A stretch of 64,000 nt of DNA, from NCBI GenBank assembly GCA_001029675.1, contig CP011210.1, forward strand, positions 948,891-1,012,890, read 5' to 3'. The notes beneath the pieces are model-generated. The model worked only from the letters and a program-made list of their open reading frames with translations. It was not told the origin of the DNA and did not search any database. A program made the position numbers and the translations under genes. How positions within the stretch are numbered: the first letter of the stretch is position 1; each line of letters begins with the position of its first letter. Of this stretch, positions 6,830 through 62,870 are shown in pieces. The DNA comes from Candidatus Beckwithbacteria bacterium GW2011_GWC1_49_16. GTDB taxonomy: Bacteria > Patescibacteriota > Microgenomatia > UBA1400 > CG1-02-47-37.

Positions 6830-8068
6830 TTACTTCCAGGTCGGCAGCCAAAACCAATACTTAACCAAGTTTTTGGGGAGATGGACGGCGGTGTTAATTG
6901 GATAGAAGAAAAGAAAAAGAGCTACGACGATAGTCGTGTAGTAGATGATTAGTAGGCGACCTCGCTGGGGCGAGGTTTTTTGAAAGTCAATTAGCGCCCA
7001 GGCAATAATGATGGTAAGTAAGGATAGGGCCGGTAGGTAGTGGTGTAAGAAAAGAATTCTGGGGGAGAAAGACCAAGGCAACCAAAGAAGAAAATAACTG
7101 ACAAGAAGGTAGATCGTTGATCGTTGATGGCGGTAGAGGGCGTAGATCACGGCCACCAGTCCGCCCCAGAAAACGGCCGGGTTGCCCAGGTTATAAATGT
7201 TGGCGATGGTGTCTTTAGCATAGTCGACGTAAAACCAAACGGGACGAGCCAAAAGCGGCCACGTAAGGGCGGCGGTTTGGTAGTCGTGGGTGGCGGAAAG
7301 ACCGGTTTGGTACCAATAGATTTGCTGGTGGAGGTGGTAAAAGTCGATTAAGCTGTGGCCTTGAGCGAAAAACTGAAGGTAGGAAAGAAAGTAAATGACC
7401 ACAGGAATAATCAGTAAACTGTAAACCGTAATCAGTAACTTTTTAGGATTGGTAATTAAAACTTTTAGTTGGGGTAAAAGAAAAACGGCAAAGATGGGGT
7501 AGATGGCTAGGGCGGAGTGCTTGGTGGCAAGAGCCAAGCCGGTAAAGATGCCGGTGAGATAAAGATGTTTTAAGGTCCGACCTTTAAGAGCACGGTAAAA
7601 AAAGGTCAGCGCCAAAAGCATAAAGGTGGTGACGAAGATGTCGTTCATGGTGATTCTGGACATGGTGAGAGCGAGGCCGTCAAGCGAAAAAAAGGCGGCG
7701 GCCAAAAGCGACAGTTTAGGGTTTTTAAACAGGGCCTGGGCGAGAGTAAAAACCGCCGCCACGGCCAGGGTGCCGAAAAGGGCGCTGGGAAACCGCCAGG
7801 CAAAACTGTTATCGCCCAAAAGCTTGACCGAACCTGCCTGGATCAGTTTGGCCAGCGGCGGGTGAAGCCAATCATAAGCCGTCCCCTTTTCGGGGGGCTC
7901 GTGCCACCATTCGTAGCCGGCCGGATTATTTTCAGCGTGAGCCCGGACGGTGACGACATGATAGACTTCGTCAAAAACGTAGGCCGGCGGGATGCCAAGG
8001 CGGAAGACACGGACAACTAGGGTGAAAGTAAGTATTGCCCAAAATGCCTTGGTGTAAAATGACTTCAT
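6830..8068 (-). CDS. GT-C fold glycosyltransferase, PMT/ArnT-like (GT39/GT83 family)
   Basis: Polytopic membrane protein with a DE motif in the first periplasmic loop (YVFDEVYH). The start is probably the internal Met MKSFYTKAFW, which shares a CATG with the divergent gene at 8067. Confidence 0.6.
   Translation of the reverse strand: MKSFYTKAFWAILTFTLVVRVFRLGIPPAYVFDEVYHVVTVRAHAENNPAGYEWWHEPPEKGTAYDWLHPPLAKLIQAGSVKLLGDNSFAWRFPSALFGTLAVAAVFTLAQALFKNPKLSLLAAAFFSLDGLALTMSRITMNDIFVTTFMLLALTFFYRALKGRTLKHLYLTGIFTGLALATKHSALAIYPIFAVFLLPQLKVLITNPKKLLITVYSLLIIPVVIYFLSYLQFFAQGHSLIDFYHLHQQIYWYQTGLSATHDYQTAALTWPLLARPVWFYVDYAKDTIANIYNLGNPAVFWGGLVAVIYALYRHQRSTIYLLVSYFLLWLPWSFSPRILFLHHYLPALSLLTIIIAWALIDFQKTSPQRGRLLIIYYTTIVVALFLFFYPINTAVHLPKNLVKYWFWLPTWK
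7572..7584. repeat. Solo 13-mer AAGGTCCGACCTT inside the PMT-like glycosyltransferase coding sequence
   Basis: Exact 13/13 match to the repeat terminus, embedded as ...LKGRTLK... in the minus-strand protein. Confidence 0.7.
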
Positions 8069-9545
8069 GAGATTTATTGTAGCACTCACGTTTTGGGTAG
8101 TGGTATTTTGGTTAACTTTTAGCCAGACTATGTTCAGGCAAAATGACGGTGTTTTTGGCGCCTGCTCAAACTGCTGGGGCGATTGGTCGGCCCACACCAG
8201 CTACATGGCCTCGTTTGCCTTTGGGCGAAACTTTCCGCCCAGCTTACCGATTTTGGCCGGCGAAAAATTCAGCTATCCCTTTTTAGTGGATTTGATCACG
8301 GCCGGAGTGGTCAAGCTGGGAGTCGACTGGGTGAAAGCAATGGTGGCGGTCAGCTTAGTCACCGCGGTGGGGTTGGCGGGGGCGGTAATAGCTTTTGGCT
8401 GGAAGCTAACCGGTAAGTTTAAAATCGGGGTGGTAACGGCGCTGGTGTTTTTTTTAAACGGCGGCGTGGGCGAGTGGCAAAATCTTATTTCCTCCCAGGT
8501 CGTCCCCCAGCGGGGGCTGGCTCTGGGGATGACCATGGCCATCTGTGTCTACTGGTTGCTGTGGCAAAAGAAACTTTTTTGGGCGGGGGTGGTGGCAGGT
8601 TTGTTGCCGCTGGTTCACGCCCATTCGTTTATGGCGGTAGTCTTGGTGGCGGGGGGGCTAGGGGGCTGGCGAGTGATCAGAGCAAAAAATAAAACCAAGG
8701 AAATTTCAGCCTGGTTGGCTTTTGCTGTCCCGGCGTTGATTCTGGGCGGGGCGCAGGTGAGGTATTTTTACGCCGGGGTCTTGGGCCAAAACTTTGTCAG
8801 GTGGCAACCAGGCTGGCTGGCTGGCGGCGGCCTTTGGGGCTGGGCCTGGTTTTGGCTCAAAAACGCGGGGCTGGTCTTGGTTTTGGCAACAGCAGGCTGG
8901 TGGCTGGCTCCAAAAAATCTCCAGCGTTTTAGCCTGGTATTCTGGGGGTTGTTTTTTCTGGCTAACTTAGTCGTCTTTCAACCTTGGGATTGGGACAACA
9001 CTAAAATGTTGACCCACTGGCATTTAATGGCTTCGGTGCTGGCGGCCGGGGTAATCGTCAGGTTTTTTGACCATAAACGCTGGTTGGTAAAAATCTTAGG
9101 AGTGGGGGTGTTGGTTGCCAGTGTTTGGTTTGGATCGGTTAAGGTCGTGGCCATTGCCAAAGGGGAAAATCAGTATCGCTTTTGGGATAAAAACCAAATC
9201 GAAGCCGCGGCTTGGGTCAAAGACAATACCCCTCCCCGAGCAGTGTTTTTGACCGCTTCAAACCATGATCACTGGCTGCTTCCACTCACCGGCAGAAAAA
9301 TCGTCATCGGTTACCCGGGCTGGCTGTGGACTTACGGGCTTAACTACAGTCAGCGGGAAAAAGAAGTCGGAGAAATTTTTGGCGGCGGACAGACGGCAGA
9401 CAGCCTAATGGACAAATACCGGGTCGACTACGTCGTTTTAGGGCCGGAAGAAAAAAGACTCGACTCTATCAACCAGGAATATTTCCAAACCAAGTTGACT
9501 GAAGTTTACCAGCTTGAGGACTACCAAGTCTTTGCGGTCAACTAA
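8067..9545 (+). CDS. Polytopic integral membrane protein with C-terminal soluble domain (putative GT-C-type glycosyltransferase)
   Basis: About 11 predicted TM helices followed by a ~130-aa soluble C-terminal domain; sits in the glycosyltransferase neighbourhood. Confidence 0.4.
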   Translation: MRFIVALTFWVVVFWLTFSQTMFRQNDGVFGACSNCWGDWSAHTSYMASFAFGRNFPPSLPILAGEKFSYPFLVDLITAGVVKLGVDWVKAMVAVSLVTAVGLAGAVIAFGWKLTGKFKIGVVTALVFFLNGGVGEWQNLISSQVVPQRGLALGMTMAICVYWLLWQKKLFWAGVVAGLLPLVHAHSFMAVVLVAGGLGGWRVIRAKNKTKEISAWLAFAVPALILGGAQVRYFYAGVLGQNFVRWQPGWLAGGGLWGWAWFWLKNAGLVLVLATAGWWLAPKNLQRFSLVFWGLFFLANLVVFQPWDWDNTKMLTHWHLMASVLAAGVIVRFFDHKRWLVKILGVGVLVASVWFGSVKVVAIAKGENQYRFWDKNQIEAAAWVKDNTPPRAVFLTASNHDHWLLPLTGRKIVIGYPGWLWTYGLNYSQREKEVGEIFGGGQTADSLMDKYRVDYVVLGPEEKRLDSINQEYFQTKLTEVYQLEDYQVFAVN

Positions 9546-15644: not shown

Positions 15645-16102
15645 TGATTGTGGCCTTGGAAAACATCAGGAGTCTTTATAACGTCGGGGCGATTTTAAGA
15701 AGCGCCAGCTTTTTTGGAGTGAGCGAGGTATTTTTGGTGGGGGTAACGGGGTCGAGGAAAATCGGCGGCCAAAGGTGGCTTCACGAAGGGTTAGCCAAAA
15801 CCGCTTTGGGAGCAGAATGGCAGTTACAGATCAAAATCTTGAAAGACAGCCAGAAATTGATTGATCTTGCCAAGAAGAACGGTTTGAAACTGGTAGTAGT
15901 GGAGCAAACGGCGGGGGCAACTCCCCTGTCAAGCTTCCGGCCGGGCAAAAACATGGTCTTGGTCTTTGGCAACGAGGTAACTGGCGTCAGTCAAAAAGTT
16001 TTGGCGGCGGCAGACAAGGTGGTAGAAATCCCCCGACGGGGCAAAAAAACTTCTTTAAATGTCGCCGTGGCGGCCGGAATTGTTTTAAGTCGATTGGGGT
16101 AG
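15644..16102 (+). CDS. SpoU/TrmH-family RNA 2'-O-methyltransferase
   Basis: SPOUT motifs: LYNVGAILRSA...LVFGNEVTGVS...SLNVAVAAGIVL. Confidence 0.8.
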   Translation: MIVALENIRSLYNVGAILRSASFFGVSEVFLVGVTGSRKIGGQRWLHEGLAKTALGAEWQLQIKILKDSQKLIDLAKKNGLKLVVVEQTAGATPLSSFRPGKNMVLVFGNEVTGVSQKVLAAADKVVEIPRRGKKTSLNVAVAAGIVLSRLG

Positions 16103-19100
16103 GTCCTGCCTGTCGGTAGGCAGACCCAGGGGCCAGCAGTGGCGGCGGTATTCGCAGCGAAGACAATGGCGTTGATAGTCGGTGGTGCGGGCAAAGCGGT
16201 GGCGGCGAATGGCTTTCATCGAAGACTTGATGGTGGTCATCAATTTGGCTACCTGATCGTCTGGAATGTCAAAGCTTCGTTTGACAAACTTGGTCTTTTT
16301 TAGGCCGGACTCGACAAAATCCAGCTCGGCTTCTAAGACTTTGTAGCTTAGGCGCGGATCAGCAGCAAAAAGAAGCCTGTAGAAAACCAGCTGACGAAAA
16401 AGGTCGCCCGAAGAAGTTTTGGTCTGGCCCAAAATGTCGTTAGCGCTTTTAGTCGGCCCGGTTTTGTAGTCGGTGACCTTGATGGTCTTTTTGGTTTTAT
16501 CGATTAAATCAACCCGGTCGATTTTGCCGGATAAGGGGATGTCGTCCAGGTAGGGCTTGGAGTAAAAACCGCCAAAGCGCAATTCTACGGCCAACGGCTT
16601 GGTCATCTCTTGATGGTAGTAGCGGTAGTAGGCGGCAAGGGCGTTGACGCCTTTATCAATAAAATCGGCGTGTCTCACCGGAGTTAAAACTTCACTACCT
16701 AAAGCTTTCTTAAACTGGCTTAATAAAAATTCCTTGGCGGGCAAGCGGTTGGTTTTGAGGAAGCGGCGGTAGAATATTTCCAAAGCCTTATGGACGGCGG
16801 TGCCAAAAGATAAGTAGGCTTGTTTGGCCCGGGGGACACGAATGAGGTTGTTTAGCTTGAATTTATAGCTGCAGGCCAGATAGGTGTTTAGGGCCGTAGC
16901 CGAGAGTTTAAAGTCTTTTAAAATGAGGTTGAGAAAATCACTTTCTTTGACGGACGGGGTTACCTGGGGCAGGGGTTTTAAGAGTTTGGTTAGGGCCTGT
17001 TTGGCCTGTTTAGTTAATTGGGGTGAGACGGGTTCAAGGTATTTTTGAGGAATTTCGGAAACAAACATGGAGGGGACGGCTTCTTTGCCGGTGACGGAAC
17101 CCGAGTAGCGGTCGGCGTAAGTAACGCAGACTTTTTTGCGGGCGCGGGTTAGCCCCACGTAAAACAGCCGCCTTTCGTCTTCATTTTTCTCTTTTTTTTG
17201 AAGATCGGTGAAGCTTAAGATCCCTTGGGGAAGTTTGATTAACTCCCGGGTGCGGTTGTTGCCCCATTTTTTATCGATAGCCCGATAAATAAAGACGTAG
17301 TCCCATTCCCTCCCCTTGGCTTTGTGGACGGTAGATAGGGTGACGGCGTTGGTTTTTATGTCCAGATCCTGCTCGACGACGCTCAAACGGTTTTGTTCCA
17401 TCAACTCAAGGGCTTTAATGAAACCAACCAAGTTGAGGCTGTGGTCGGCTTGGTTTAAACTTTTGACCTCGGCAAAAAGCGAGTTTAAACGGTTTAGCTT
17501 TTCGACGCTATCGGGCAAAGTCTCGAGCCAGCTTAAAAACCCCGACTGCTTTAAAACCATTTCGAAAAACTGGCTGAAGGTTTTTTCGGCGTCCAGCTTT
17601 CTCCAATCAGAAAGCTTGCCAATAAACTTAGTGATTTTGGAGCCGGATTTGAGCTTTAATTTTTTAAATTGGGGCGAGAGAATAAAGTCCACCAGATTGG
17701 TGTCGGCTTGGGCGACGGCCCGGGAAAGTTTTAAGATATCCAGGGCGTCTAATTTCAAAAACTGATAGTTTAACAGGGTGAATAAATCAAGGTCGTCACC
17801 CGCGCCTCCGCCGGCGTCGCTGATCACTTTCAAAAGGAGCAAAAACTGGTTTACTACCGGGTCGATTAAGACGTTGCCGCCGCCTTCTATGTCCAAACTC
17901 ACCCCAAACTTGGTGAGCATTTCTGCCAGCGTCCCGGCGTCGGCGTTGTGGCGAAAAAGAACGGCGATACTCTCTGGTTTGGTACCTGATTTGATCAGCC
18001 GGTCTATCTCCCGGGCGAGCCAAAAGGTTTCCAGAGTTTCCGAAGGAAATCTGACCAAAGACAGCTTTTGCTCTTTGAATTTACCTTGGGATTTTAATGT
18101 GGTGGTGGCTTTTTTGAGCTGGAGCTGGTTTTTTTTGATGACGGCGGCGGAGGCATCCAGGATGGTTTGAGTGGAACGGTAGTTTTGCGCCAGTTCAATC
18201 ACTTGGGCTTGGGGGAAAAGATTGTTGAAGGCGATAAAGTTCTCGGTCGAAGCTCCTTGGAAGCGAAAAATTGAATTATGAACTACCACATTGTTGGCTA
18301 CAAAATTGTGGCTAGGCGGTACTTCCAAGTCATAAACATTGATGGTTTTTATTTTCTTCTCGCGTTTAATGACTTTATCGTAGATAACCTTATGCCTTCT
18401 AACCACAGGGAGGTAGTTGCCAACTAAAATATTGCCTGCTTGCATTATTCTTGAGGGGCGGTGCTGTATCCTGGTAGTTCCTAAAGGCGCCTTAATATCA
18501 ATAATTCCAGGGAGTTTTCTCTCAAGCTTTTCGGCAATTTTATACAATTGAGAGAAATCAGTGTTATTTAGTCTGAAGCCTTTACCGATATTTTTATTTC
18601 TAAGCTTAAATCCGAGCTTGTTAAGTTTTTTTATGATTTTTTTGTTTGAAGTTTGGATTCGTAGCTCATGAAGAATGGAGGGGGATTGTAGTAGTCCTTT
18701 TTTATCATATTTAGAGCGATAGTTTCTTGAACACATAACAAGGTTAATTTTGATTCTCCCGTCCCCCAAAGTGGTTGCATCTCGAATATAATGGGGTTGA
18801 TTAAGATTTACCCCGAGATCTTGAGCAAGTATGGCAGCATTTTTTTCTGTATCAAACTCTTGATACAGCTTTTTAAGCCACTTGCCAGTAATTGCGTTAT
18901 TTCTTTCTTGAAAAACAACCGTTGGGATTTTGTAGGTAAGCGATAAAACCATTTCACGGTATCTGGCTTCTGCTTCTGATTTGTGTGCTGACAGGCCAAT
19001 AATTTTATCGGCTCCTGCCTCAATTTTTAGTCTTACTGAAAGGCTTCTTGTAATGCCTAAACGCCAACCCAAGCTTTTTTTATACATGAGGTAAACATAC

Positions 19101-20185
19101 CAGATGTTAGTCATTTCTCTGGGCGGGATAAAACAGAACATTTTATGATTATCTGTAGTAGCTATTTTTTGACCTGACTCGGTTGTAAAAGTAATGAGCC
19201 TAACTTTTCTTTTTTGCTTGAAAACCCTTTTAACTTTAGCGTAAGAGGTGTAGCCTTTACCTACCGCGGTTAAAACTTCATCTCCGGCTTTAATCTTTTC
19301 GATGTTTTTAAGGCCTGATTTGGTGTTGATTTTGATGCCCGCCGGCAAACACTGGTTCGGGTCTCCGACAACAAAGACATTGGCCTGATCGCCCCAGTAG
19401 GAAGCCAGAAGTTGTAAAACCTGGTTTTGAGCCGAGTTGGTATCCTGGTACTCGTCAACTAAAAAATAAAGCAGGCGCTCCTGATGGGTTCTTAATATGT
19501 TGGTATCCTGCTTAAAAGCGACTGCCACAAAATTGATCATGTCTTCAAAGTCATAGCGGCCTTTTTGGGCGAGTAACTTTTGGTAGGTTTGATAAACCCG
19601 AGCCAGGTCGTAGTTTTTGTCCAGCGTTTTTCTAGCGTTTAATAAGGCGGTGGCGGAAAGTTTGTTCTTCTCTTTTACCAACGAGGCTTTCTCTTTTTTG
19701 ACGATGGCGGCAAAAGTGATCGGGCTGACGGCTTCTCTTTTGAGGTCTTTTATTGATTCTATTAGGCTTGGGGTGTAGTAGAGGGGCGAGTTGGCCGGCT
19801 TGATAGCTTTAAAACGGCCGTGAGACAAAATCTGGTTAAAAATATCCACCCTTTCCAGTTCGGAAAGAGGCTCAAGATTCAAAGAAATGGCAAAGCGGTC
19901 GGCAAATTCCTGGATGACCGAGGAGCAAAAAGAGTGAAAAGTGGAGATATTAACGTAATAGGCCGGTTGGCCGATAGTGGCAAGTAGCCTCTGGCGCATC
20001 TCTCTGGCGCCGGATTCGGTAAAAGTTAAAGCCAAAATGCCGTCGGGGGGAGTGTCGGTTTTTTTCAAGATGTAAGCGATGCGCTCGGCGATGATCTGGG
20101 TTTTGCCGGTGCCGGGGCCGGCGATGACCATGACCGGGCCTTCGATGGTAGTGACGGCTTTAACTTGGGCCGGGTTTAGCTTCAT
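16085..20185 (-). CDS. UvrD-family helicase fused to a C-terminal Cas4/RecB-like PD-(D/E)xK nuclease with a four-Cys cluster, interrupted by an intein
   Basis: N-terminal Walker A AGPGTGKT and DEYQDTN. Motif III is split (VVGDPNQ | intein | SIFRFQGAS). The C-terminal nuclease carries Cys residues at YLACSYKF and CLRCEYRRHC. Confidence 0.8.
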   Translation of the reverse strand: MKLNPAQVKAVTTIEGPVMVIAGPGTGKTQIIAERIAYILKKTDTPPDGILALTFTESGAREMRQRLLATIGQPAYYVNISTFHSFCSSVIQEFADRFAISLNLEPLSELERVDIFNQILSHGRFKAIKPANSPLYYTPSLIESIKDLKREAVSPITFAAIVKKEKASLVKEKNKLSATALLNARKTLDKNYDLARVYQTYQKLLAQKGRYDFEDMINFVAVAFKQDTNILRTHQERLLYFLVDEYQDTNSAQNQVLQLLASYWGDQANVFVVGDPNQCLPAGIKINTKSGLKNIEKIKAGDEVLTAVGKGYTSYAKVKRVFKQKRKVRLITFTTESGQKIATTDNHKMFCFIPPREMTNIWYVYLMYKKSLGWRLGITRSLSVRLKIEAGADKIIGLSAHKSEAEARYREMVLSLTYKIPTVVFQERNNAITGKWLKKLYQEFDTEKNAAILAQDLGVNLNQPHYIRDATTLGDGRIKINLVMCSRNYRSKYDKKGLLQSPSILHELRIQTSNKKIIKKLNKLGFKLRNKNIGKGFRLNNTDFSQLYKIAEKLERKLPGIIDIKAPLGTTRIQHRPSRIMQAGNILVGNYLPVVRRHKVIYDKVIKREKKIKTINVYDLEVPPSHNFVANNVVVHNSIFRFQGASTENFIAFNNLFPQAQVIELAQNYRSTQTILDASAAVIKKNQLQLKKATTTLKSQGKFKEQKLSLVRFPSETLETFWLAREIDRLIKSGTKPESIAVLFRHNADAGTLAEMLTKFGVSLDIEGGGNVLIDPVVNQFLLLLKVISDAGGGAGDDLDLFTLLNYQFLKLDALDILKLSRAVAQADTNLVDFILSPQFKKLKLKSGSKITKFIGKLSDWRKLDAEKTFSQFFEMVLKQSGFLSWLETLPDSVEKLNRLNSLFAEVKSLNQADHSLNLVGFIKALELMEQNRLSVVEQDLDIKTNAVTLSTVHKAKGREWDYVFIYRAIDKKWGNNRTRELIKLPQGILSFTDLQKKEKNEDERRLFYVGLTRARKKVCVTYADRYSGSVTGKEAVPSMFVSEIPQKYLEPVSPQLTKQAKQALTKLLKPLPQVTPSVKESDFLNLILKDFKLSATALNTYLACSYKFKLNNLIRVPRAKQAYLSFGTAVHKALEIFYRRFLKTNRLPAKEFLLSQFKKALGSEVLTPVRHADFIDKGVNALAAYYRYYHQEMTKPLAVELRFGGFYSKPYLDDIPLSGKIDRVDLIDKTKKTIKVTDYKTGPTKSANDILGQTKTSSGDLFRQLVFYRLLFAADPRLSYKVLEAELDFVESGLKKTKFVKRSFDIPDDQVAKLMTTIKSSMKAIRRHRFARTTDYQRHCLRCEYRRHCWPLGLPTDRQDLPQST
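18275..19351 (-). mobile_element. Intein (~359 aa) inserted in helicase motif III of the UvrD-family protein
   Basis: Starts with Cys (CLPAGIKINTKSG...). Block B TxxH is TTDNH, ~67 aa in. Block F/G is NVYDLEVPPSHNFVANNVVVHN followed by the +1 Ser. Removing it restores VGDPNQSIFRFQGAS. Confidence 0.8.
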
Positions 20186-39296: not shown

Positions 39297-39750
39297 AAGT
39301 AATATCTAAGGGTTTGAGGTTGAGGCGTCGGTAAAATTTGATGGCGCGGGTGTTTTTATAATAGCAGTTCACCTGGAGAGTGCGGAGGTTGTTTTGGCGA
39401 CACCAACTTTTAAAAGCGGCAATGAGCCTGGCGCCTACTTTTTGAGATCGGTACTGGGGGAGAACGCCGATGTTTTCCAGCTCGGCTACGCTTCTAGTGC
39501 GATAAAAAAATGCTTTCTTTTTGCCGTTGAGGTAGCCCGCTGGTTTTCCGTCAATTTCGGCGATTAAGCAGCAGAATTTTTTATCCGAGGTAATTTCTTT
39601 TAAATATTTTGTCCCTGCGCGGGTAAACTCCCAGTCTGGATTGAAAAAGGGGTCAAACCGGCTGTTGGCAGTAAAAATTTCGTGGTTTAATTTTTGAATT
39701 TTTTTCCAGTCTTTGAGCTTGGCTTTTCTGATTTTTACAGGAGGGCTCAT
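39280..39750 (-). CDS. GNAT family N-acetyltransferase
   Basis: ...[21 protein letters not shown]... CoA-binding motif. Confidence 0.7.
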
Positions 39751-41135
39751 TTAATTGATTGTAACATTTTGCTGGTAGAGACCCTTGGGTTGTGGGGTAA
39801 AACGACTTTGAGGCGGCCGCCTAATTTTTCCATGATGCGGCGTTTTTCTTTCTGGTTGGGGGTGCTGGCGGAGACGGCCAGGATGTCGGGGCGAATTTTT
39901 TTGATGAGGGCCTCGTGGGCGGCGGGAGAGAAAAATTTCTCCGGCAGGGCAAAGACTTGGTCGGCAATTTTCAAGCGGCGCAAGTTAATCAAGCGCCGGC
40001 TGATGGGGTTGATCGGCCGACCCGGGCCCTTAAGCAGGCTAACCCGGGTGTCGGACTCGACGCCGACTAATAAAATGTCGCCCTGTTTTTTGGCGGCCTT
40101 TAAAAATTTTACGTGTTCTGGATGGAGAATATCGAAAACGCCGGTGGCGAGAACTTTTCCTCTTTCCTTCCCAATAAGGTCCGACCTTTCGCCTGCCGGC
40201 GAGCCCTTCTCGGCTGGCAGCCGGGAATTCCTGTTAAGGTCGGACCTTGATAGCCTAGACAGACGCTGGCGGTATTTTTTCATGACGATTTGGCCGGTGG
40301 GGCGGGGGTGAAAAAAGGCCTGGTGGGGGCCTACCCTTTCGCGGGTAATTTTTGGCTTCATGTACCAAAGTTGGAGGCGGAAGGCGAAGGACTCCAACCA
40401 ATCAATAAGGTCTGACCTTCCCCGATGTGACTTCGGGGGCACCTTCTCGGCTTGCAGCCGGGAATTCCTGTTAAGGTCAGACCTTTGTAAGCGAAAAGAG
40501 TTCGGGAGAAAGCGGGTTACCCAAGAATTGGAGGCAATAAATTTTTGGTAAGTGCCATCTTTGTTAATCAAGGGTTTGACTTGAGCCACTTCGTGGGCGG
40601 TGTAAAGGTTGCGACGAGAGGCGGGTACGGCCAAAGCCGATTCGTCCAGCCAGAGATTAAGACAAAGTTTGTCGGCCACCTCCGAGGAATCCATTCGGCC
40701 ACCTCGGAGGTGAGGAAACAATAAAATCGTTGCCAGCAAGCGGGTGAGCCAGAGGCGATTTTTTGAGGTAACCACCATCAAATCAATGTCGTCGTTTTTG
40801 TCGGCATTCTTCATGGCCAGAGCGCCGGTGACGGCGACCAGCCTGACCGTCGGAATCAGTTTTAACCAGCCGGCGACGCGGCGGGCTAACCTAAGCTTGG
40901 CGGCCGAGATTTGGGCGCGGCGGCGGCGGAGAGCCACTAAATGAGAACGGCCTTTGAGGTGGAAATATCGGCTGGTCTTTACTATAAGGTCCGACCCACC
41001 CTGCGGGTAAATAGCGCCTGCGGCGCTTTCCTTAATGGGTCGGACCTTTAAGTCGCCGGCTATCTGCCACCTAATAATTTCGCTAGCAGTCAGCGGGTAA
41101 TCAAAAATATCCGCGTAGGCGACGGTCTTAAACAT
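39747..41135 (-). CDS. Composite ORF: N-terminal minimal nucleotidyltransferase (Pol-beta-like) domain plus C-terminal RfaE-domain-II-like cytidylyl/adenylyltransferase, with three in-frame palindromic repeat insertions; may be two genes
   Basis: N-terminus YADIFDYPLT...GALAMKNADKNDDIDLMVV. C-terminus ...GVFDILHPEHVKFL...LLKGPGRPINP (cf. GxFDxxHxGH and KGPGRPVNP of HldE/RfaE). The repeats are translated as RSDLNRNSRL... Confidence 0.4.
   Translation of the reverse strand: MFKTVAYADIFDYPLTASEIIRWQIAGDLKVRPIKESAAGAIYPQGGSDLIVKTSRYFHLKGRSHLVALRRRRAQISAAKLRLARRVAGWLKLIPTVRLVAVTGALAMKNADKNDDIDLMVVTSKNRLWLTRLLATILLFPHLRGGRMDSSEVADKLCLNLWLDESALAVPASRRNLYTAHEVAQVKPLINKDGTYQKFIASNSWVTRFLPNSFRLQRSDLNRNSRLQAEKVPPKSHRGRSDLIDWLESFAFRLQLWYMKPKITRERVGPHQAFFHPRPTGQIVMKKYRQRLSRLSRSDLNRNSRLPAEKGSPAGERSDLIGKERGKVLATGVFDILHPEHVKFLKAAKKQGDILLVGVESDTRVSLLKGPGRPINPISRRLINLRRLKIADQVFALPEKFFSPAAHEALIKKIRPDILAVSASTPNQKEKRRIMEKLGGRLKVVLPHNPRVSTSKMLQSIK
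40176..40248. repeat. Miniature palindromic repeat, copy a (AAGGTCCGACCTT ... AAGGTCGGACCTT)
   Basis: 13-bp terminal inverted repeats read directly. Its internal core is shared with copy b. Confidence 0.8.
40407..40485. repeat. Miniature palindromic repeat, copy b (AAGGTCTGACCTT ... AAGGTCAGACCTT)
   Basis: Shares a 45-bp core (cttctcggctKgcagccgggaattcctgttaaggtcRgacctt) with copy a at about 42/45 identity. Confidence 0.8.
40985..41048. repeat. Miniature palindromic repeat, copy c (AAGGTCCGACC ... GGGTCGGACCTT), with a different internal segment
   Basis: The same terminal inverted-repeat motif bounds a distinct ~40-bp internal sequence, which is itself a palindrome (ccctgcgg...gcgcctgcggcgc). 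Confidence 0.65.
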
Positions 41136-52174: not shown

Positions 52175-52244
52175 AAGGACAGACCTTCCAGCTTCGCTGT
52201 CCCGGCTTGGCCGTTGGCCACGCCTCCTGTTAAGGTCTGGCCTT
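52175..52244. repeat. Degenerate copy of the same repeat family in the valS 5' leader
   Basis: AAGGACAGACCTTcc...cctgttAAGGTCTGGCCTT; it shares cctgttaaggtc with copies a/b and gaccttcc with copy b. Confidence 0.6.
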
Positions 52245-55670: not shown

Positions 55671-58600
55671 TTACTTCTCAATAAAGTCGACGGTGAAGAC
55701 ACGGTCGTAGGAAAGATCGGACTCGAAGGTGGTTACTTGGGCAGAAGTGAGGGCCCGGGGAGAAGTGGAGGTGGCTAGTAAGAAAGATGGATGGTTGACG
55801 ATGACCTTGACCGGATCGGCGATGATGCCCGGCTGCTTGGGAATGACGACCGCCAGTTTGCCCTCGCGCGACCCCTCTTGGGGAGCGGTAGCCAGCTTAC
55901 CCGGCAAGCGGTAGGTCATCTCCACCGCCAAGGTGTGCTTGACCGGAACGGTAACGGGGAAGCCTAAAACGAGTTTGTCACCCACCTGGGAGGCATCGAT
56001 GTCGGCCTCGGGGTCAAGCTTGGTCTCGCCTACTTTGACCGAGATGACTCGCGAACCGGCGGGAATGTAAGCTCTTAAATAGCTTCGGTAATTTCCTCCG
56101 GGCCAGGCGTCCGCCGGGCTTTGGTTTTGGTAGGTAATGGTAGCAGTAGATAGAATTTCCTTAGTCTTTAGAATGGTCAGCTGGTATTCCAGCTCTCGGT
56201 TTAAGAAGTAGTTGGCTTTATTGATGCCCAAGTTGGCCTCGACGGGATAAAAGTAGTCGACGATCGGGGCGGGGTTGGCGGCGATTAAGGGGGCATAGAG
56301 AGCGCCGGCCCAGTTTTGTTCTAAAAGAATTTTTTGGCTGCCCTCGTCGTGGAGATTGAGAAGAATTTGTTTTTGGGTCATGGCGGTTTCGAGGGCTTGG
56401 GTAAACTGGAGTAGTTCGCCGGCAGAGGCGTTTTGGGCTCGGTCGAAAAGTTCACGGGCAAGAGACCCCAAAAAGTCTTTCTTTTGAGTTGAGCCGGGGA
56501 AAAAGTCGATTTCAGTGCGGTATTCGGCACGCTCAAACAAGTTGGTGGCGGTGATTTCCTCGTTGAAGTCGGGCAGTTTAACCGGGCCGGTGACTTTAAG
56601 AAATTCTCTGGCGGCCGGGAGGTTGACGGCGATCACCCCATCGACGTTTCTGCCGGTGGATTTGTTGAGAAACCACTCGGCGCGGGGGCCGGAGACGGTA
56701 AAATCGGGGTCCCAGTTCGAGTCCCTAAAAAACCACGAGTTCTGGCCTAAAAACTCCTTGAGGGGTTCGGGGGGTTCGACAAAACCAGACAGCTGGCCGT
56801 CGGCGGCGTAGATGTCTTCGACAGTGAAGTCTAAAAGCTTCCCTTTTTCAAAGGTGAGTAAACCATAGGAACCGATGAATCCCCCTGTAGGACGGATCTC
56901 GGCGTTGTTTTGAAACAAAATTAGGTAGGTTTTTTTGGAGTTTTGAGCGATTAGATCGGGAACCAACGGCAGCATCACCCGAGCCTGGTTGACTTTTTGG
57001 CGAATGGCGGGAAAGTCGGTGGTCAACTGGTGGAGTTTTTGGCTTAAAGGAGTAGACAGGTTCAGACTCAACTGCCTGCCGCTTTGGAGTTCGGACTCAA
57101 CAAAAGAGAGTTCGGAGTAGGCTTGGTCGAGGTTAACCTTGATACGATTTAGGGCTAAATCGAGGTTGCCGTCTTGGTGCTTGAGGACGATTGAGGCTAA
57201 CAAGGTACCGTCTTGGGCGGCGGCGGCTAGGTGGAGAGTCCCCTGGCTTAGTTTGCCGCCGATGAACAGGAGTTGATCAAGGTTGGTAGCCAACTCCCCT
57301 GCCCCAACTGCGCTTAAGACCGCGTGGCGGCTTCGCAGTAACCGGCGGGAAGATTGAAAGTGTCTGTCGGCCGAGGTGGTGAGTTTTTCCAGTCGGTCCA
57401 GGTGGGTAAGGTCGGTCGATGAGGCAGCCTGGTTTAAGTAACTGACACCCAAAAGGGTATGGCCTATCATTAAAACCAGGGGTCCGAGGACAAGAACCAG
57501 GGCGAGAGCGAGGGTGAGGACGGCGGTTTTGGTCCGACGAGAAAGTTTGCTGAAGCCGGGAAATTGGGGAAGCTTGGGAAGTTTGGAAAGTTTGGGATGT
57601 TTGGGAAGTTTGAATTTAGGCAAGGCCGGAAACTTAGGTATAGTAATATTTTTTTTGGGAGCATCGGGGAAGGCTGGCTTAATCCCCAACTCTTCCAAAG
57701 AAAGCTGGTCTTCCCGGCGGGGTGTTTCTGGGGGGGGTGGTTGTTTAATTTCTTCAGGTAGTTTGGCCTGGCCGCTTTGGAGCCATTCTAAGGTGCGGGT
57801 AATCCCCTCTTCAAGGTCTACCTTGGATGTCCAACCTAGGTTTTGTTGAGAATTTAAGGTTTCCTTAGGAAGGCTCATTGGGCCGAGAGTGTCTTCGCCT
57901 TTGACGAAGTCAATTTTCAAACCCTTGTCGGCTAAAACCTCTTTGATTTTGTAGGCCACGTTTAGAAGAGTAATTTTCTCCGGATTTAGCAGGGTGTAGA
58001 TCTCGCCGGTGGAGCTTTGGGTGAACATGGCCTTGGTGAGGCCGTAGACGATATCGGATACAAAAGTGGGGTAAAGAGGGGTGAGGCCGTTGCCGGGGAT
58101 TTCCAGGGTATCTCCCTTTTTGGCGGCAAGAAAGAGTTTGGCCAGACCGGTGCCGGTGGCAAGATCCATGCGGGGGCCGTAGACGTGGGCGAGGCGGACG
58201 ACGCGGGCGTCAAGCTGGTGGCGGTTGACGTATTCAAAAGTTAGAGCCTCGCTGAAACGCTTGGCTTCGTGGTGAGAATAGAGTTCTTGGGCGACGTGGT
58301 CGGAGCCAAAATAATGAGTCAAGTCGCTAGTGGCGAGGCGAGCGGAAAAAATATCGGTGGTGGAGGCGAGAAGAAACTTAGCTTGGTGTTTTTTGGCTAT
58401 TTCTAAAAGCTCGCGGCTGCCCAGGGAGTTGACCAAAAGCGTGTCCAGGCTGACGTCGAGGCCATTGACATAGGCTTCGATGCCGGCCAAGTGAAAGACG
58501 TAGTCGACCTGGGGCAGATTGGTTTTTAAAGGTTTGTTTAGGTCGTGCTCAAAAAAAACAAAGTTCTTTTGGTCAAGCAAGTGGTTGAGGTTTTGTTTTT

Positions 58601-58769
58601 TGCCGCTTAAAAAATTGTCGATGCCATAGACCAAACAGTTTTGCAAAATTAAAGCGTCGCAGAGATGGGAGCCAATAAAGCCGGCGGCGCCGGCGACCAG
58701 GGCGGTGGGGAGGTGAGAAGACGACTTAACTTGTTGGACAGATTTTTTGGCAGGCATAGCTTGAACCAA
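55671..58769 (-). CDS. Fusion protein: N-terminal NAD-dependent epimerase/dehydratase (SDR), central TM and KLPKLP-repeat linker, C-terminal DUF4012-like domain
   Basis: GAAGFIGSHL Rossmann motif; KFPALPKFKLPKHPKLSKLPKLPQFPGF repeats; ...PTGGFIGSYGLL... in the C-terminal half. Confidence 0.55.
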   Translation of the reverse strand: MVQAMPAKKSVQQVKSSSHLPTALVAGAAGFIGSHLCDALILQNCLVYGIDNFLSGKKQNLNHLLDQKNFVFFEHDLNKPLKTNLPQVDYVFHLAGIEAYVNGLDVSLDTLLVNSLGSRELLEIAKKHQAKFLLASTTDIFSARLATSDLTHYFGSDHVAQELYSHHEAKRFSEALTFEYVNRHQLDARVVRLAHVYGPRMDLATGTGLAKLFLAAKKGDTLEIPGNGLTPLYPTFVSDIVYGLTKAMFTQSSTGEIYTLLNPEKITLLNVAYKIKEVLADKGLKIDFVKGEDTLGPMSLPKETLNSQQNLGWTSKVDLEEGITRTLEWLQSGQAKLPEEIKQPPPPETPRREDQLSLEELGIKPAFPDAPKKNITIPKFPALPKFKLPKHPKLSKLPKLPQFPGFSKLSRRTKTAVLTLALALVLVLGPLVLMIGHTLLGVSYLNQAASSTDLTHLDRLEKLTTSADRHFQSSRRLLRSRHAVLSAVGAGELATNLDQLLFIGGKLSQGTLHLAAAAQDGTLLASIVLKHQDGNLDLALNRIKVNLDQAYSELSFVESELQSGRQLSLNLSTPLSQKLHQLTTDFPAIRQKVNQARVMLPLVPDLIAQNSKKTYLILFQNNAEIRPTGGFIGSYGLLTFEKGKLLDFTVEDIYAADGQLSGFVEPPEPLKEFLGQNSWFFRDSNWDPDFTVSGPRAEWFLNKSTGRNVDGVIAVNLPAAREFLKVTGPVKLPDFNEEITATNLFERAEYRTEIDFFPGSTQKKDFLGSLARELFDRAQNASAGELLQFTQALETAMTQKQILLNLHDEGSQKILLEQNWAGALYAPLIAANPAPIVDYFYPVEANLGINKANYFLNRELEYQLTILKTKEILSTATITYQNQSPADAWPGGNYRSYLRAYIPAGSRVISVKVGETKLDPEADIDASQVGDKLVLGFPVTVPVKHTLAVEMTYRLPGKLATAPQEGSREGKLAVVIPKQPGIIADPVKVIVNHPSFLLATSTSPRALTSAQVTTFESDLSYDRVFTVDFIEK

Positions 58770-61162: not shown

Positions 61163-61199
61163 AATTTAGCCAAGTATATATTACTTTGCTTTTCCCAAC

Positions 61200-61212
61200 A
61201 AGGTCCGACCTT
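61200..61212. repeat. Solo 13-mer AAGGTCCGACCTT in the rpmH–dnaA intergenic (origin-proximal) region
   Basis: Exact match; it lies ~37 bp from a perfect DnaA box. Confidence 0.7.
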
Positions 61213-61248
61213 GTTGTTAATTTTCGTGTATTGTTGGTGTTGACGGGG

Positions 61249-61257
61249 TGTGGATAA
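61249..61257 (-). promoter_or_regulatory. Perfect DnaA box (TTATCCACA) upstream of dnaA
   Basis: The plus strand reads tgtggataa. Confidence 0.5.
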
Positions 61258-61292: not shown

Positions 61293-62696
61293 ATGAATAA
61301 TGAGTCGTTGTGGTCGGCGGTGAGAAGCGAGCTTGAGTTAAACTTGTCGCCGGGAAACTTTGCTACTTGGATTGCGCCTCTGGCGCTTTTATCGCTTAAA
61401 GAAAGCGGTGGTAAGTCAATATTGACGATCGCCTGCCCGTCGGTGTTTCATAAAAACCAGATTAGCGAGCGGTATTTGGGCCAGATAGCGGCAGTGGCGG
61501 AAAAGGCATTAAAGAAAAAGTGTGAGATTAAACTAGCGGTGAAGCAGCGGGCGGTAAAGCAAAAAAAGGGCCGGCGGGGGAGCGGTGAGGGCGAAGATTT
61601 GTTTTCGGTAGACATAGCCAAAATGGAAAGGGAGGCTTATCTTGAGGCGGCGGCCAGGGTGGGCTTGTCTGCCGCGCTGACTTTCAAAAACTTTGCCGTC
61701 TCCGGCTCCAACGAGGTGGCTCACGCGGCGGCGAGAACTGCGGCCAAAAGCCCGGGGCAAGTGTATCGGCTCGTCTTTGTTTATGGCGGGGTGGGGGTGG
61801 GCAAAACCCACCTGATGCAAGCGGTGGGGCACGAGATTCTAGCCAAAAACCCTGACGCGGCGGTGGTGTATTGCACCGGCGAGGAATTTACCAACGAGAT
61901 CATTGAAGCGATCAGAAATAAAACCACGGCCAACTTTCGCCACAAGTACCGCCAGGCTAGGGTGCTACTTTTAGATGACGTCCAGTTTATCGGAGGAAAA
62001 GAAACGGTTCAGGAAGAGTTTTTCCACACTTTTAACGCGGTCCATAAAGAGGGGGGCCAGGTGGTTTTGACCAGCGATCGGCTGCCAAATGAAATCGCCG
62101 GGCTTGAGGATAGGCTTAGGTCGCGGTTTGAGGGGGGGCTGACGGTAGATATCCAACCGCCGGGGTTTGAGTTGAGGACGGCAATTTTACTGATTAAGGC
62201 CCAGCAGCTCAATATGGAACTGCCAATGAGGGTGGCCCAGGTGGTGGCGGCCAACGTAGAATCAACCCGAAAACTTGAGGGGGTGCTTCTAAGGCTTAGC
62301 GGAGAACAGGTGGCTAAAAAAGAGGCCCTGACCGAAGAGCTGGCGATGGCGCTACTTAATAAAATCAACGGCGAGACGGTAAGACTTAAAAGCCGGGTGA
62401 CGGCGACGCAGGTGGTGCGCCTGGTGGCGGAATACTACCAGCTAAAGACTACCGACATTCGGGGAGAACGACGGCTTAAAACGGTGGCCTTGCCGCGGCA
62501 GGTCGTGATGTACCTTTTGCGTAAGGAGCTGCGGCTGTCTTTGAAAGAAGTGGGTCGGGTTTTGGGCGGAAGGGACCATTCGACGGTGCTTCACGGACAA
62601 GAAAAAGTCTCCCGGCTTCTTTCCGAGTCGGAAGATTTGCGCCTCGATGTTATCAACATTAGAAAGCAAATTTATCAAAACAGGGGAAAGGTTTAA
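61293..62696 (+). CDS. dnaA: Chromosomal replication initiator DnaA
   Basis: AAA+ Walker A GGVGVGKTHL and the C-terminal DNA-binding domain. Confidence 0.95.
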   Translation: MNNESLWSAVRSELELNLSPGNFATWIAPLALLSLKESGGKSILTIACPSVFHKNQISERYLGQIAAVAEKALKKKCEIKLAVKQRAVKQKKGRRGSGEGEDLFSVDIAKMEREAYLEAAARVGLSAALTFKNFAVSGSNEVAHAAARTAAKSPGQVYRLVFVYGGVGVGKTHLMQAVGHEILAKNPDAAVVYCTGEEFTNEIIEAIRNKTTANFRHKYRQARVLLLDDVQFIGGKETVQEEFFHTFNAVHKEGGQVVLTSDRLPNEIAGLEDRLRSRFEGGLTVDIQPPGFELRTAILLIKAQQLNMELPMRVAQVVAANVESTRKLEGVLLRLSGEQVAKKEALTEELAMALLNKINGETVRLKSRVTATQVVRLVAEYYQLKTTDIRGERRLKTVALPRQVVMYLLRKELRLSLKEVGRVLGGRDHSTVLHGQEKVSRLLSESEDLRLDVINIRKQIYQNRGKV

Positions 62697-62700
62697 TGAG

Positions 62701-62870
62701 TTGTCCACTGTTTTTAGGTTATCAACAAGATATTCACAAAAACATCCACCGCCGGAGCGGGGGTTATCAACAGGAAAAAAAGGCAAAGATTTTAGGGGAA
62801 AAATCGATTATAATGAACATATCAAAGCCGCCTACTAAAACTACTACTAATACTAAATAATTGTAGGAGA
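62701..62870. promoter_or_regulatory. Putative oriC: cluster of DnaA-box-like 9-mers followed by an AT-rich tract in the dnaA–dnaN spacer
   Basis: TTGTCCACT (62701), TTATCAACA (62719), ATATTCACA (62730), TTATCAACA (62764), then ...ctactaaaactactactaatactaaataatt... Confidence 0.45.

Follow-up and report, generated by a model that had tools for sequence, protein, structure and literature searches.

The 13-nucleotide (nt) sequence AAGGTCCGACCTT at positions 7572-7584 (plus strand) of a 64,000-nt stretch of the Candidatus Beckwithbacteria bacterium GW2011_GWC1_49_16 genome (contig CP011210.1; the whole stretch is referred to below as the window) is probably the conserved apical core of a hairpin repeat family of the form stem-AAGG-N5-CCTT-stem, which occurs throughout Patescibacteria and represents the cognate DNA of Y1/HUH transposases resembling the tyrosine transposases (RAYTs) associated with repetitive extragenic palindromic (REP) sequences. 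The copy lies in-frame in the minus-strand coding sequence (CDS) of a PMT-family glycosyltransferase, and the most plausible reading is that of a REP-type singlet belonging to a system similar to that of RAYTs and their REP doublets forming hairpins (REPINs), located in an insertion-tolerant loop of the protein.

The 13-mer is a 6+1+6 near-palindrome with two 6-nt arms, its reverse complement differing at the centre base only. It had been described as an exact 13-mer encoding LKGRTLK on the minus strand of the PMT gene, and its position, strand and open reading frame (ORF) were all found as described, the minus-strand reading being CTT AAA GGT CGG ACC TTA AAA. The host ORF is open from 6830 to 8197, while the identical database protein P0121 (412 amino acids (aa), 100% identity, Candidatus Beckwithbacteria) starts at 8068; because this protein has 412 aa, the true CDS of the PMT/GT39-family gene (minus strand; Pfam PMT_2, PMT and PMT_4TMC) is probably 6830-8068. 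In an alignment of 23 homologues, LKGRTLK falls in a hypervariable loop that connects transmembrane segments; the PMT homologues do not share this peptide, and the loop is no longer than in most of them. Palindrome-type peptides are present in other PMT homologues, both in the loop of the 13-mer and in a second one. In terms of DNA sequence, the P0165 orthologue carries a 41-nt hairpin, AAGGTCCG...CCGGACCTT, with the same outer arms and in the loop matching that of the window 13-mer, and P0182 carries a similar hairpin, but in the second PMT loop. A longer imperfect palindrome, TTAAGGTC-C-GACCTT(T)AA, is present around the 13-mer of the window, which itself is 100% identical to three public assemblies of Candidatus Beckwithbacteria.

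The readable sequence of this genome of ~1 Mb consisted of the window and 18 kb of added flank, 82 kb in all. Exact copies of AAGGTCCGACCTT were found at four positions (7572, 40176, 40236 on the minus strand, and 61200), compared to none in 100 dinucleotide-preserving shuffles. The chance expectation of about 0.002 copies given in the original prediction is arithmetically correct for one 13-mer in 64 kb (2 x 64000 / 4^13). Likewise, there are 8 occurrences of the inner 9-mer GGTCNGACC, for an expectation of 0.78, and a relaxed core (centre S or free centre base, up to 2 mismatches) is found at 10 sites of the window against 2.1 expected. Chance recurrence is ruled out by these counts. Eight of the 10 relaxed sites pair into four hairpin doublets of 63-79 nt, named E1 to E4, while the other two are solo copies.

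The original prediction had called the 13-mer a repeat terminus, and the other copies are indeed the ends of inverted-repeat elements, with a second solo copy near 61200. E1 is a 73-nt doublet at 40176-40248 (AAGGTCCGACCTT ... AAGGTCGGACCTT, centres C/G), E2 a 79-nt doublet at 40407-40485 (AAGGTCTGACCTT ... AAGGTCAGACCTT, centres T/A, repeat family D20) and E3 a 63-nt doublet at 40986-41048 (AAGGTCCGACCCA ... TGGGTCGGACCTT, centres C/G), all three given on the plus strand and lying in-frame in one minus-strand gene (39747-41135) for a 462-aa fusion of a nucleotidyltransferase (NTase)-like N-terminal domain with a cytidylyltransferase-like domain. This gene is open through all three elements, E1 being located in its linker, with the minus-strand translation RSDLNRNSRLPAEKGSPAGERSDL, and E3 near its N-terminus. 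E4, a 70-nt doublet at 52175-52244 (plus strand; AAGGACAGACCTT ... AAGGTCTGGCCTT, centres A/T, with one mismatch in the arms), occupies the intergenic space between valS and a gene for a 2-hydroxyacid dehydrogenase. In each of the four elements the terminal 13-mers are inverted and their centre bases complementary, and the predicted fold on either strand is a single long stem that encloses a pair of small hairpins, with z values against shuffled sequences ranging from -3.8 to -5.7 (E1, -42 kcal/mol and z = -4.4; E2, z = -5.7; E3, z = -5.5; E4, z = -3.8). The inner arm halves of E3 display compensatory changes, and the right-hand 44 nt of E2 match E1 at 95% identity. Near-identical copies of E1 were found in other genomes at loci L038, L031 and L051, and relatives of E4 at L007 and L031. 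The second solo copy is the centre of a perfect 10+1+10 palindrome of 21 nt, CAACAAGGTC-C-GACCTTGTTG, at 61196-61216 (plus strand) in the divergent rpmH-dnaA intergenic region; its hairpin has z = -4.6 and its left flank TTCCCAAC resembles that of E1, TTCCCAAT.

Inspection of the bases directly outside E1-E4 displayed no direct repeats at their outer borders, which fits Y1 transposition rather than DDE transposition. A gathering-threshold scan of the window with Rfam returned one tRNA only and nothing at the elements, and a known RNA family was rejected on that basis. In the coding sense, the elements of the NTase-cytidylyltransferase gene end in CCTT-ATTGG in three genomes (CCAAT before the core on the plus strand of the window; alignment A7, columns 150-165, 735-745 and 975-990; window 40168-40175 and 40399-40406), with the exception of E3 of the window, which reads CCTT-ATAG. 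CCTT-ATTGG and the similar left flank could be an element end, or else a target or cleavage motif.

The NTase-cytidylyltransferase gene allows the fate of such elements to be followed among its homologues. Their length differences fall exactly at three positions, which are the positions of the elements, and the shortest homologues have no segment at the E1 and E3 positions (P0018, P0023 and P0024 for E1). The inserts of other homologues are the palindrome read in different frames, giving RSDL, QGPTLK, GRTL, GSDP or KVRP. The possibility that the 462-aa ORF represents several genes joined by repeats was rejected, as homologues of 396-464 aa span its full length and only the inserts vary. The DNA of the gene was then aligned between the window and two relatives, P0002 and P0003. 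Over the whole gene the window and P0002 are 66.7% identical, while at the corresponding positions the identity is ~92% for E3 and 100% over 44 nt of E2, so that the elements are better conserved (about 92-100%) than the gene that hosts them. P0003, with an overall identity of 86% to P0002, lacks 42 nt from inside E3 and retains a single hairpin, AAGGTCCG-TGGGC-CGGACCTT. The comparison of P0003 with P0002 at the E3 position provides direct evidence for the origin of single palindromes from doublets, consistent with the published view of REP singlets as remnants of doublets (PMC3337134). At the other two positions the relatives bear different element families, so that these sites turn over. Tolerance of the motif within coding DNA, which had been proposed from the PMT copy, thus turned out stronger than stated, three complete elements being read in-frame in one gene.

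The distribution of the motif in other genomes was determined by a scan of public genomes, one per species, for two cores 40-70 nt apart, which yielded 85 stretches (8-kb loci) with 264 core sites. Almost all of these loci are from Patescibacteria, including Saccharibacteria, Woesebacteria, Beckwithbacteria, Chisholmbacteria, Kaiserbacteria, Adlerbacteria, Nealsonbacteria and Lloydbacteria. A few come from metagenome-assembled genomes (MAGs) labelled otherwise, evidently wrongly in at least one case. Within longer palindromes lie 61% of the 264 cores, the outer arms having no consensus across genomes and yet being constant within a genome; the conservation sits in the tip of the hairpin and not in its foot. 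The centre bases of neighbouring cores are complementary in 56 and identical in 43 doublets, together 99 of 101 against a random expectation of one half, direct-orientation doublets thus being nearly as common as inverted ones. The ~11% of the DNA that is intergenic holds 57% of the sites, corresponding to an enrichment of about 10-fold between genes, and intergenic sites are densest between convergent genes (2.97/kb), followed by tandem (1.96/kb) and divergent (0.54/kb) arrangements. In these loci, the excess between genes and the preference for 3' ends are those typical of REP-type repeats. The hairpins are not followed by a T-run, and a role as terminator was rejected for this reason.

Some further features of these loci can be mentioned. 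MAGs titled 'uncultured Pseudomonadales' or 'Verrucomicrobia' bear Patescibacteria-type elements (L012, L031, L038 and L059 in CAZGNX01, CAZDQA01 and CAZVYS01; L001 and others in CAMNLW01); CAZVYS01 also has a Patescibacteria-type PMT gene (P0182), so its label is probably wrong, and in CAMNLW01 at least 10 contigs contain a distinct 79-nt unit with four AAAAAGGTCTGACC sites spaced by ~20 nt. At L085:1817-1913, L070:41-108 and L045:7630-7698 the core forms spacer-less head-to-tail arrays with a period of 20-21 nt, such as repeated GAAAAGTTAAGGTCCGACCTT. Perfect DnaA boxes (TTATCCACA) are enriched close to the palindromes, 11 of 28 boxes falling in the 4.4% of the DNA within 80 nt of a site. 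In several transposase cassettes (L002, L008, L029 and L044) they are found in the space separating the two upstream palindromes and beyond the downstream palindrome, and in the window a DnaA box at 61249-61257 is located 49 nt from the 61200 copy, upstream of dnaA.

Among the 136 ORFs nearest to the motif (two per locus), the top Pfam family was Y1_Tnp (IS200-like) with 11 members, the BLAST cluster of this transposase including 15 of the nearest ORFs, while no DDE transposase stood out in the Pfam scan of the neighbouring ORFs. By BLAST and tblastn the transposase gene is present in 17 of the 85 loci, each from a different MAG, and the layout of the cassette is constant: two extended palindromes precede the gene, the closer of them at 10-30 nt from the start codon, and a third is on or just after the stop codon. 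Palindromes far outnumber transposase genes, and no case of a multi-copy transposase gene was seen among the 17 gene-bearing loci. The encoded proteins are of about 225-240 aa, and both their HUH motif (NHFH) and a tyrosine in YIHLNP are invariant. All seven proteins tested found their best NCBIfam match in the 'REP-associated tyrosine transposase' model NF047646. The predicted structure (pLDDT 87) has as its top fold match in the PDB entry 4ER8, the E. coli TnpA-REP bound to a REP hairpin (E = 2.6e-7, TM score 0.66 on the target), followed by the transposases of IS608, ISDra2 and IS200. In searches of solved structures, a profile search weakly matched 4ER8 and a search with the single transposase sequence gave no match. 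One search returned 7,330 homologous proteins at E <= 1e-10, whose source-supplied names are nearly all Patescibacteria. The REP-like alternative raised in the original prediction is consequently supported, Y1_Tnp being the leading neighbour family in other genomes, bracketed by the motif and best matched by NF047646 and 4ER8.

The association was also approached from the opposite direction, with 80 metagenome loci picked by transposase protein similarity alone. The exact AAGGTCNGACCTT core is present in only ~5 of 74 of these loci, and 67 of the 69 loci with usable flanks have 10-mers or longer in common between the flanks on the two sides of the gene. This common sequence is a palindrome of the AAGG-N5-CCTT type that is particular to the locus, e.g. 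AAGGTTCAACCTT, AAGGACAGTCCTT, AAGGCTAAGCCTT, AAGGCGACGCCTT and GAGGAATTTCCTC. These results indicate that each transposase gene has its own hairpin variant and that the 13-mer of the window is one variant of the AAGG-N5-CCTT theme.

At least 13 of the 80 RAYT-like genes contain an in-frame internal copy of their own flanking palindrome, in a variable loop ~25 aa before the HUH motif (L093, L094, L096, L097, L101, L104, L115, L116, L122, L126, L130, L150 and L151, at about nt 120-240 of the gene; further positions are L063:4238, L008:6857 and L029:3380). This internal copy encodes QGxxL, QGRTL in the family consensus, and varies with the flanking palindrome from genome to genome.

By analogy with E. 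coli TnpA-REP and the TnpA of IS608, the transposase would bind the hairpin in single-stranded DNA, then cut and join beside it, and doublets could thereby spread without target-site duplications. In gene-dense genomes the surviving insertions would be those that keep the frame in tolerant loops, with some copies being translated as a result. The PMT singlet is most likely what remained after loss of the interior of a doublet or of a longer hairpin, as in the comparison of P0003 with P0002. It is probably immobile and without a function of its own, an inert remnant and minor relic.

Several observations weigh against the identification of the 13-mer with a RAYT/REPIN-like system. No Y1 transposase gene is present in the window or in the 18 kb of added flank, tblastn of the window with 15 Y1 proteins giving a best E of 0.07, and no further copy of the core was found in this flank; the density is modest, with 10 sites in the 64-kb window (~1 per 6 kb). 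Seven of these 10 sites lie in coding sequence, unlike classic REPs. The longer imperfect palindrome around the PMT copy, although present as had been proposed, folds no better than shuffled sequences (z = -0.65), hence with no significant longer hairpin beyond the 13-nt core, and the most likely origin of this copy from a doublet is argued by analogy with another gene. On the protein side, the NF047646 scores of 28-65 bits are below the cut-off of 80 of this model. Position-wise base counts over the 264 sites displayed no conserved flank tetranucleotide (GTAG or CGTC) beside the hairpin, and the 85 loci were ascertained via doublets, which favours transposase flanks. Finally, no pair of a filled and a truly empty site in near-identical genomes, and no mobility event, was observed; independent assemblies are identical at the PMT site (L168 and L169) and at the 61200 site (L166 and L167).

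A competing explanation that involves the same chemistry is an ordinary autonomous insertion sequence (IS) of the IS200/IS605 type, whose dispersed doublets and singlets would be deletion derivatives similar to miniature inverted-repeat transposable elements (MITEs) or palindrome-associated transposable elements (PATEs), instead of a domesticated single-copy RAYT with its REPINs. Hairpins on both sides of the gene, like left and right ends, the Pfam family name 'Transposase IS200 like', the significant fold matches to the TnpA of IS608 and ISDra2 and the scores under the RAYT cut-off are all compatible with it. It is nevertheless unlikely, considering that the top matches in both sequence and fold are RAYT/TnpA-REP, that the protein of ~230 aa exceeds the ~130-150 aa of IS200/IS605 TnpA chains, and that the 17 genes come from 17 different MAGs with no multi-copy case and far fewer genes than palindromes. 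It is even more improbable that the hairpin owes its maintenance chiefly to a host function, as a terminator lacking a U-tract, a stabiliser of mRNA 3' ends or a protein-binding site, with the transposase link being secondary. Such a function would be consistent with the 3'-end bias (convergent over tandem over divergent), with an apical sequence conserved across very distant lineages, with the copy in the rpmH-dnaA promoter region at 49 nt from a perfect DnaA box and with the co-option of REPs known in other bacteria (discussed in PMC3337134, PMC3733652). Purifying selection on insertions also predicts a 3'-end bias, though, and a host function accounts neither for the in-frame copies in protein loops nor for the PMT copy; the hairpins have no following T-run, and from one genome to the next the core sequence varies in parallel with the sequence flanking the transposase gene, indicating that it is the transposase that reads it. 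Some intergenic copies may have gained a host function in addition. A parS-like or origin element, considered since dnaA is in the window with one copy upstream of it, was rejected: the transposase loci are not beside dnaA and the motif is dispersed elsewhere.

The original prediction also proposed a DNA-uptake signal or a target of restriction-modification or site-specific recombination, for which the symmetric 6+1+6 site, of the kind preferred by dimeric DNA-binding proteins, and the type IV pilus genes PilN and PilO of the window could be invoked, Patescibacteria being thought to take up DNA. This is very improbable in view of a frequency of ~1 per 6 kb, with zero in the 18-kb flank, against ~1 per kb for known uptake sequences, and of the usual avoidance, not enrichment, of restriction-modification targets. 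Moreover, a duplex-binding protein does not need the palindromy seen in the variable outer stems, and related genomes replace the motif by other AAGG-N5-CCTT variants; hairpin doublets with genome-specific stems and a motif that varies with the adjacent transposase speak against both the uptake and the restriction-site proposals. It is hardly credible at all that the PMT copy arose by coincidence, or by convergent use of codons for LKGRTLK, with no relation to the repeat family. Its length of only 13 nt, the lack of a significant longer hairpin and a loop not longer than in most homologues would agree with this, whereas only ~0.002 exact copies per variant are expected in 64 kb, the peptide is unconserved in homologues and orthologues bear related hairpins at the same loop.

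Beyond the RAYT/REPIN-like assignment of the 13-mer, a more far-reaching model can be put forward, although tentatively and with more doubt than confidence: an old, vertically co-evolving RAYT-REPIN-like system across Patescibacteria might routinely write hairpins in-frame into protein loops, that of the transposase itself included, with the copies at equivalent gene positions and the one within the transposase gene kept matched to the palindrome of each genome by an active, sequence-specific copy-and-replace process. If so, the elements would be more than debris and would continually generate variation in the loop lengths of proteins in ultra-small bacteria. If the link between hairpin and transposase holds, one enzyme family would account for the recurrent 13-mer, for the short hairpin elements and for part of the loop-length variation in Patescibacteria proteins. 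For annotation, it provides a rule whereby RSDL, QGRTL, QGPTL or KVRP in variable loops mark hairpin insertions, and the hairpin and the Y1 transposase constitute a compact pair open to biochemical testing. REP/RAYT systems are textbook knowledge for Proteobacteria, and the genomes of the Candidate Phyla Radiation (CPR; ~1 Mb) are usually described as poor in mobile DNA. A search of the literature returned no paper with these 13-mers and none linking RAYT, REP or IS200 to CPR/Patescibacteria.

Other features of the window were recorded in the course of this analysis. The PilN and PilO type IV pilus assembly genes are located at its left end (1626-2796), and no link between them and the motif was found. 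The GC skew is positive (+0.06 to +0.30) over the whole window (1-64000) and over 10 kb beyond dnaN (L166, 11000-21122) regardless of gene orientation, with no sign change at the rpmH-dnaA-dnaN locus. Three TTATCAACA boxes are clustered at 62650-62772, in the dnaA 3' end and the dnaA-dnaN spacer. A 1366-aa UvrD-type helicase with a C-terminal PD-(D/E)XK nuclease is encoded at 16085-20185 (minus strand) and contains an intein (Intein_splicing) at residues about 312-637. At 57558-57611, a 9-nt tandem repeat, GGGAAnTTT, of at least 4 units is present in a 1032-aa minus-strand ORF (55671-58769) with epimerase and DUF4012 domains.

Compared with known systems, the closest resemblance is to the REP/REPIN-RAYT systems, or 'REPtrons', as defined for TnpA-REP of E. 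coli and the REPINs of Pseudomonas (PMC3337134, PMC3116915). Both consist of short hairpin-forming palindromic repeats, with inverted doublets forming one long hairpin and singlets as apparent remnants, and in the 85 loci the repeats are mostly intergenic with a 3'-end bias. In both, a Y1/HUH gene is bracketed by its own repeats, here in genomes other than that of the window, with one palindrome variant per gene and a best match to RAYT. The differences are the Patescibacteria host, a conserved part that is the symmetric hairpin tip AAGG-N5-CCTT with no GTAG/CGTC tag at the foot, a longer protein (~230 aa) that scores under the RAYT model cut-off, many copies in-frame within genes, including the transposase gene, and direct doublets almost as common as inverted ones.

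A second resemblance is to the Rickettsia palindromic elements (RPEs), which Ogata et al. in 2000 reportedly described as short palindromic elements located in-frame in coding genes and translated. As with RPEs, the elements are found in-frame in genes of small-genome bacteria and are translated as extra segments in tolerant loops. RPEs have a length of about 100-150 bp and no known associated transposase, whereas the present elements are of 63-79 nt, have an identifiable cognate Y1 transposase family and share no sequence relation with RPEs. The Y1/HUH transposase, the subterminal hairpins on both sides, the absence of target-site duplication and, by analogy, a presumed single-strand DNA chemistry are shared with IS200/IS605 and its PATE/MITE derivatives, from which the system differs by its best match to RAYT, its larger protein, the lack of any multi-copy gene seen and the large excess of gene-less hairpins. 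Pairs of DNA uptake sequences (DUS) in Neisseria and of uptake signal sequences (USS) in Pasteurellaceae are likewise short motifs that form inverted hairpin pairs downstream of genes and are tolerated in coding DNA, but the density here is ~6-fold lower and the present motif is a palindrome in its own right, differs from one related genome to another and goes along with a transposase gene. MITEs of DDE transposases differ from the present elements, which have inverted termini but no flanking direct repeats. Taken together, the system follows REP/RAYT logic but has a symmetric conserved hairpin tip, a distant and longer transposase subfamily and frequent in-frame coding copies.

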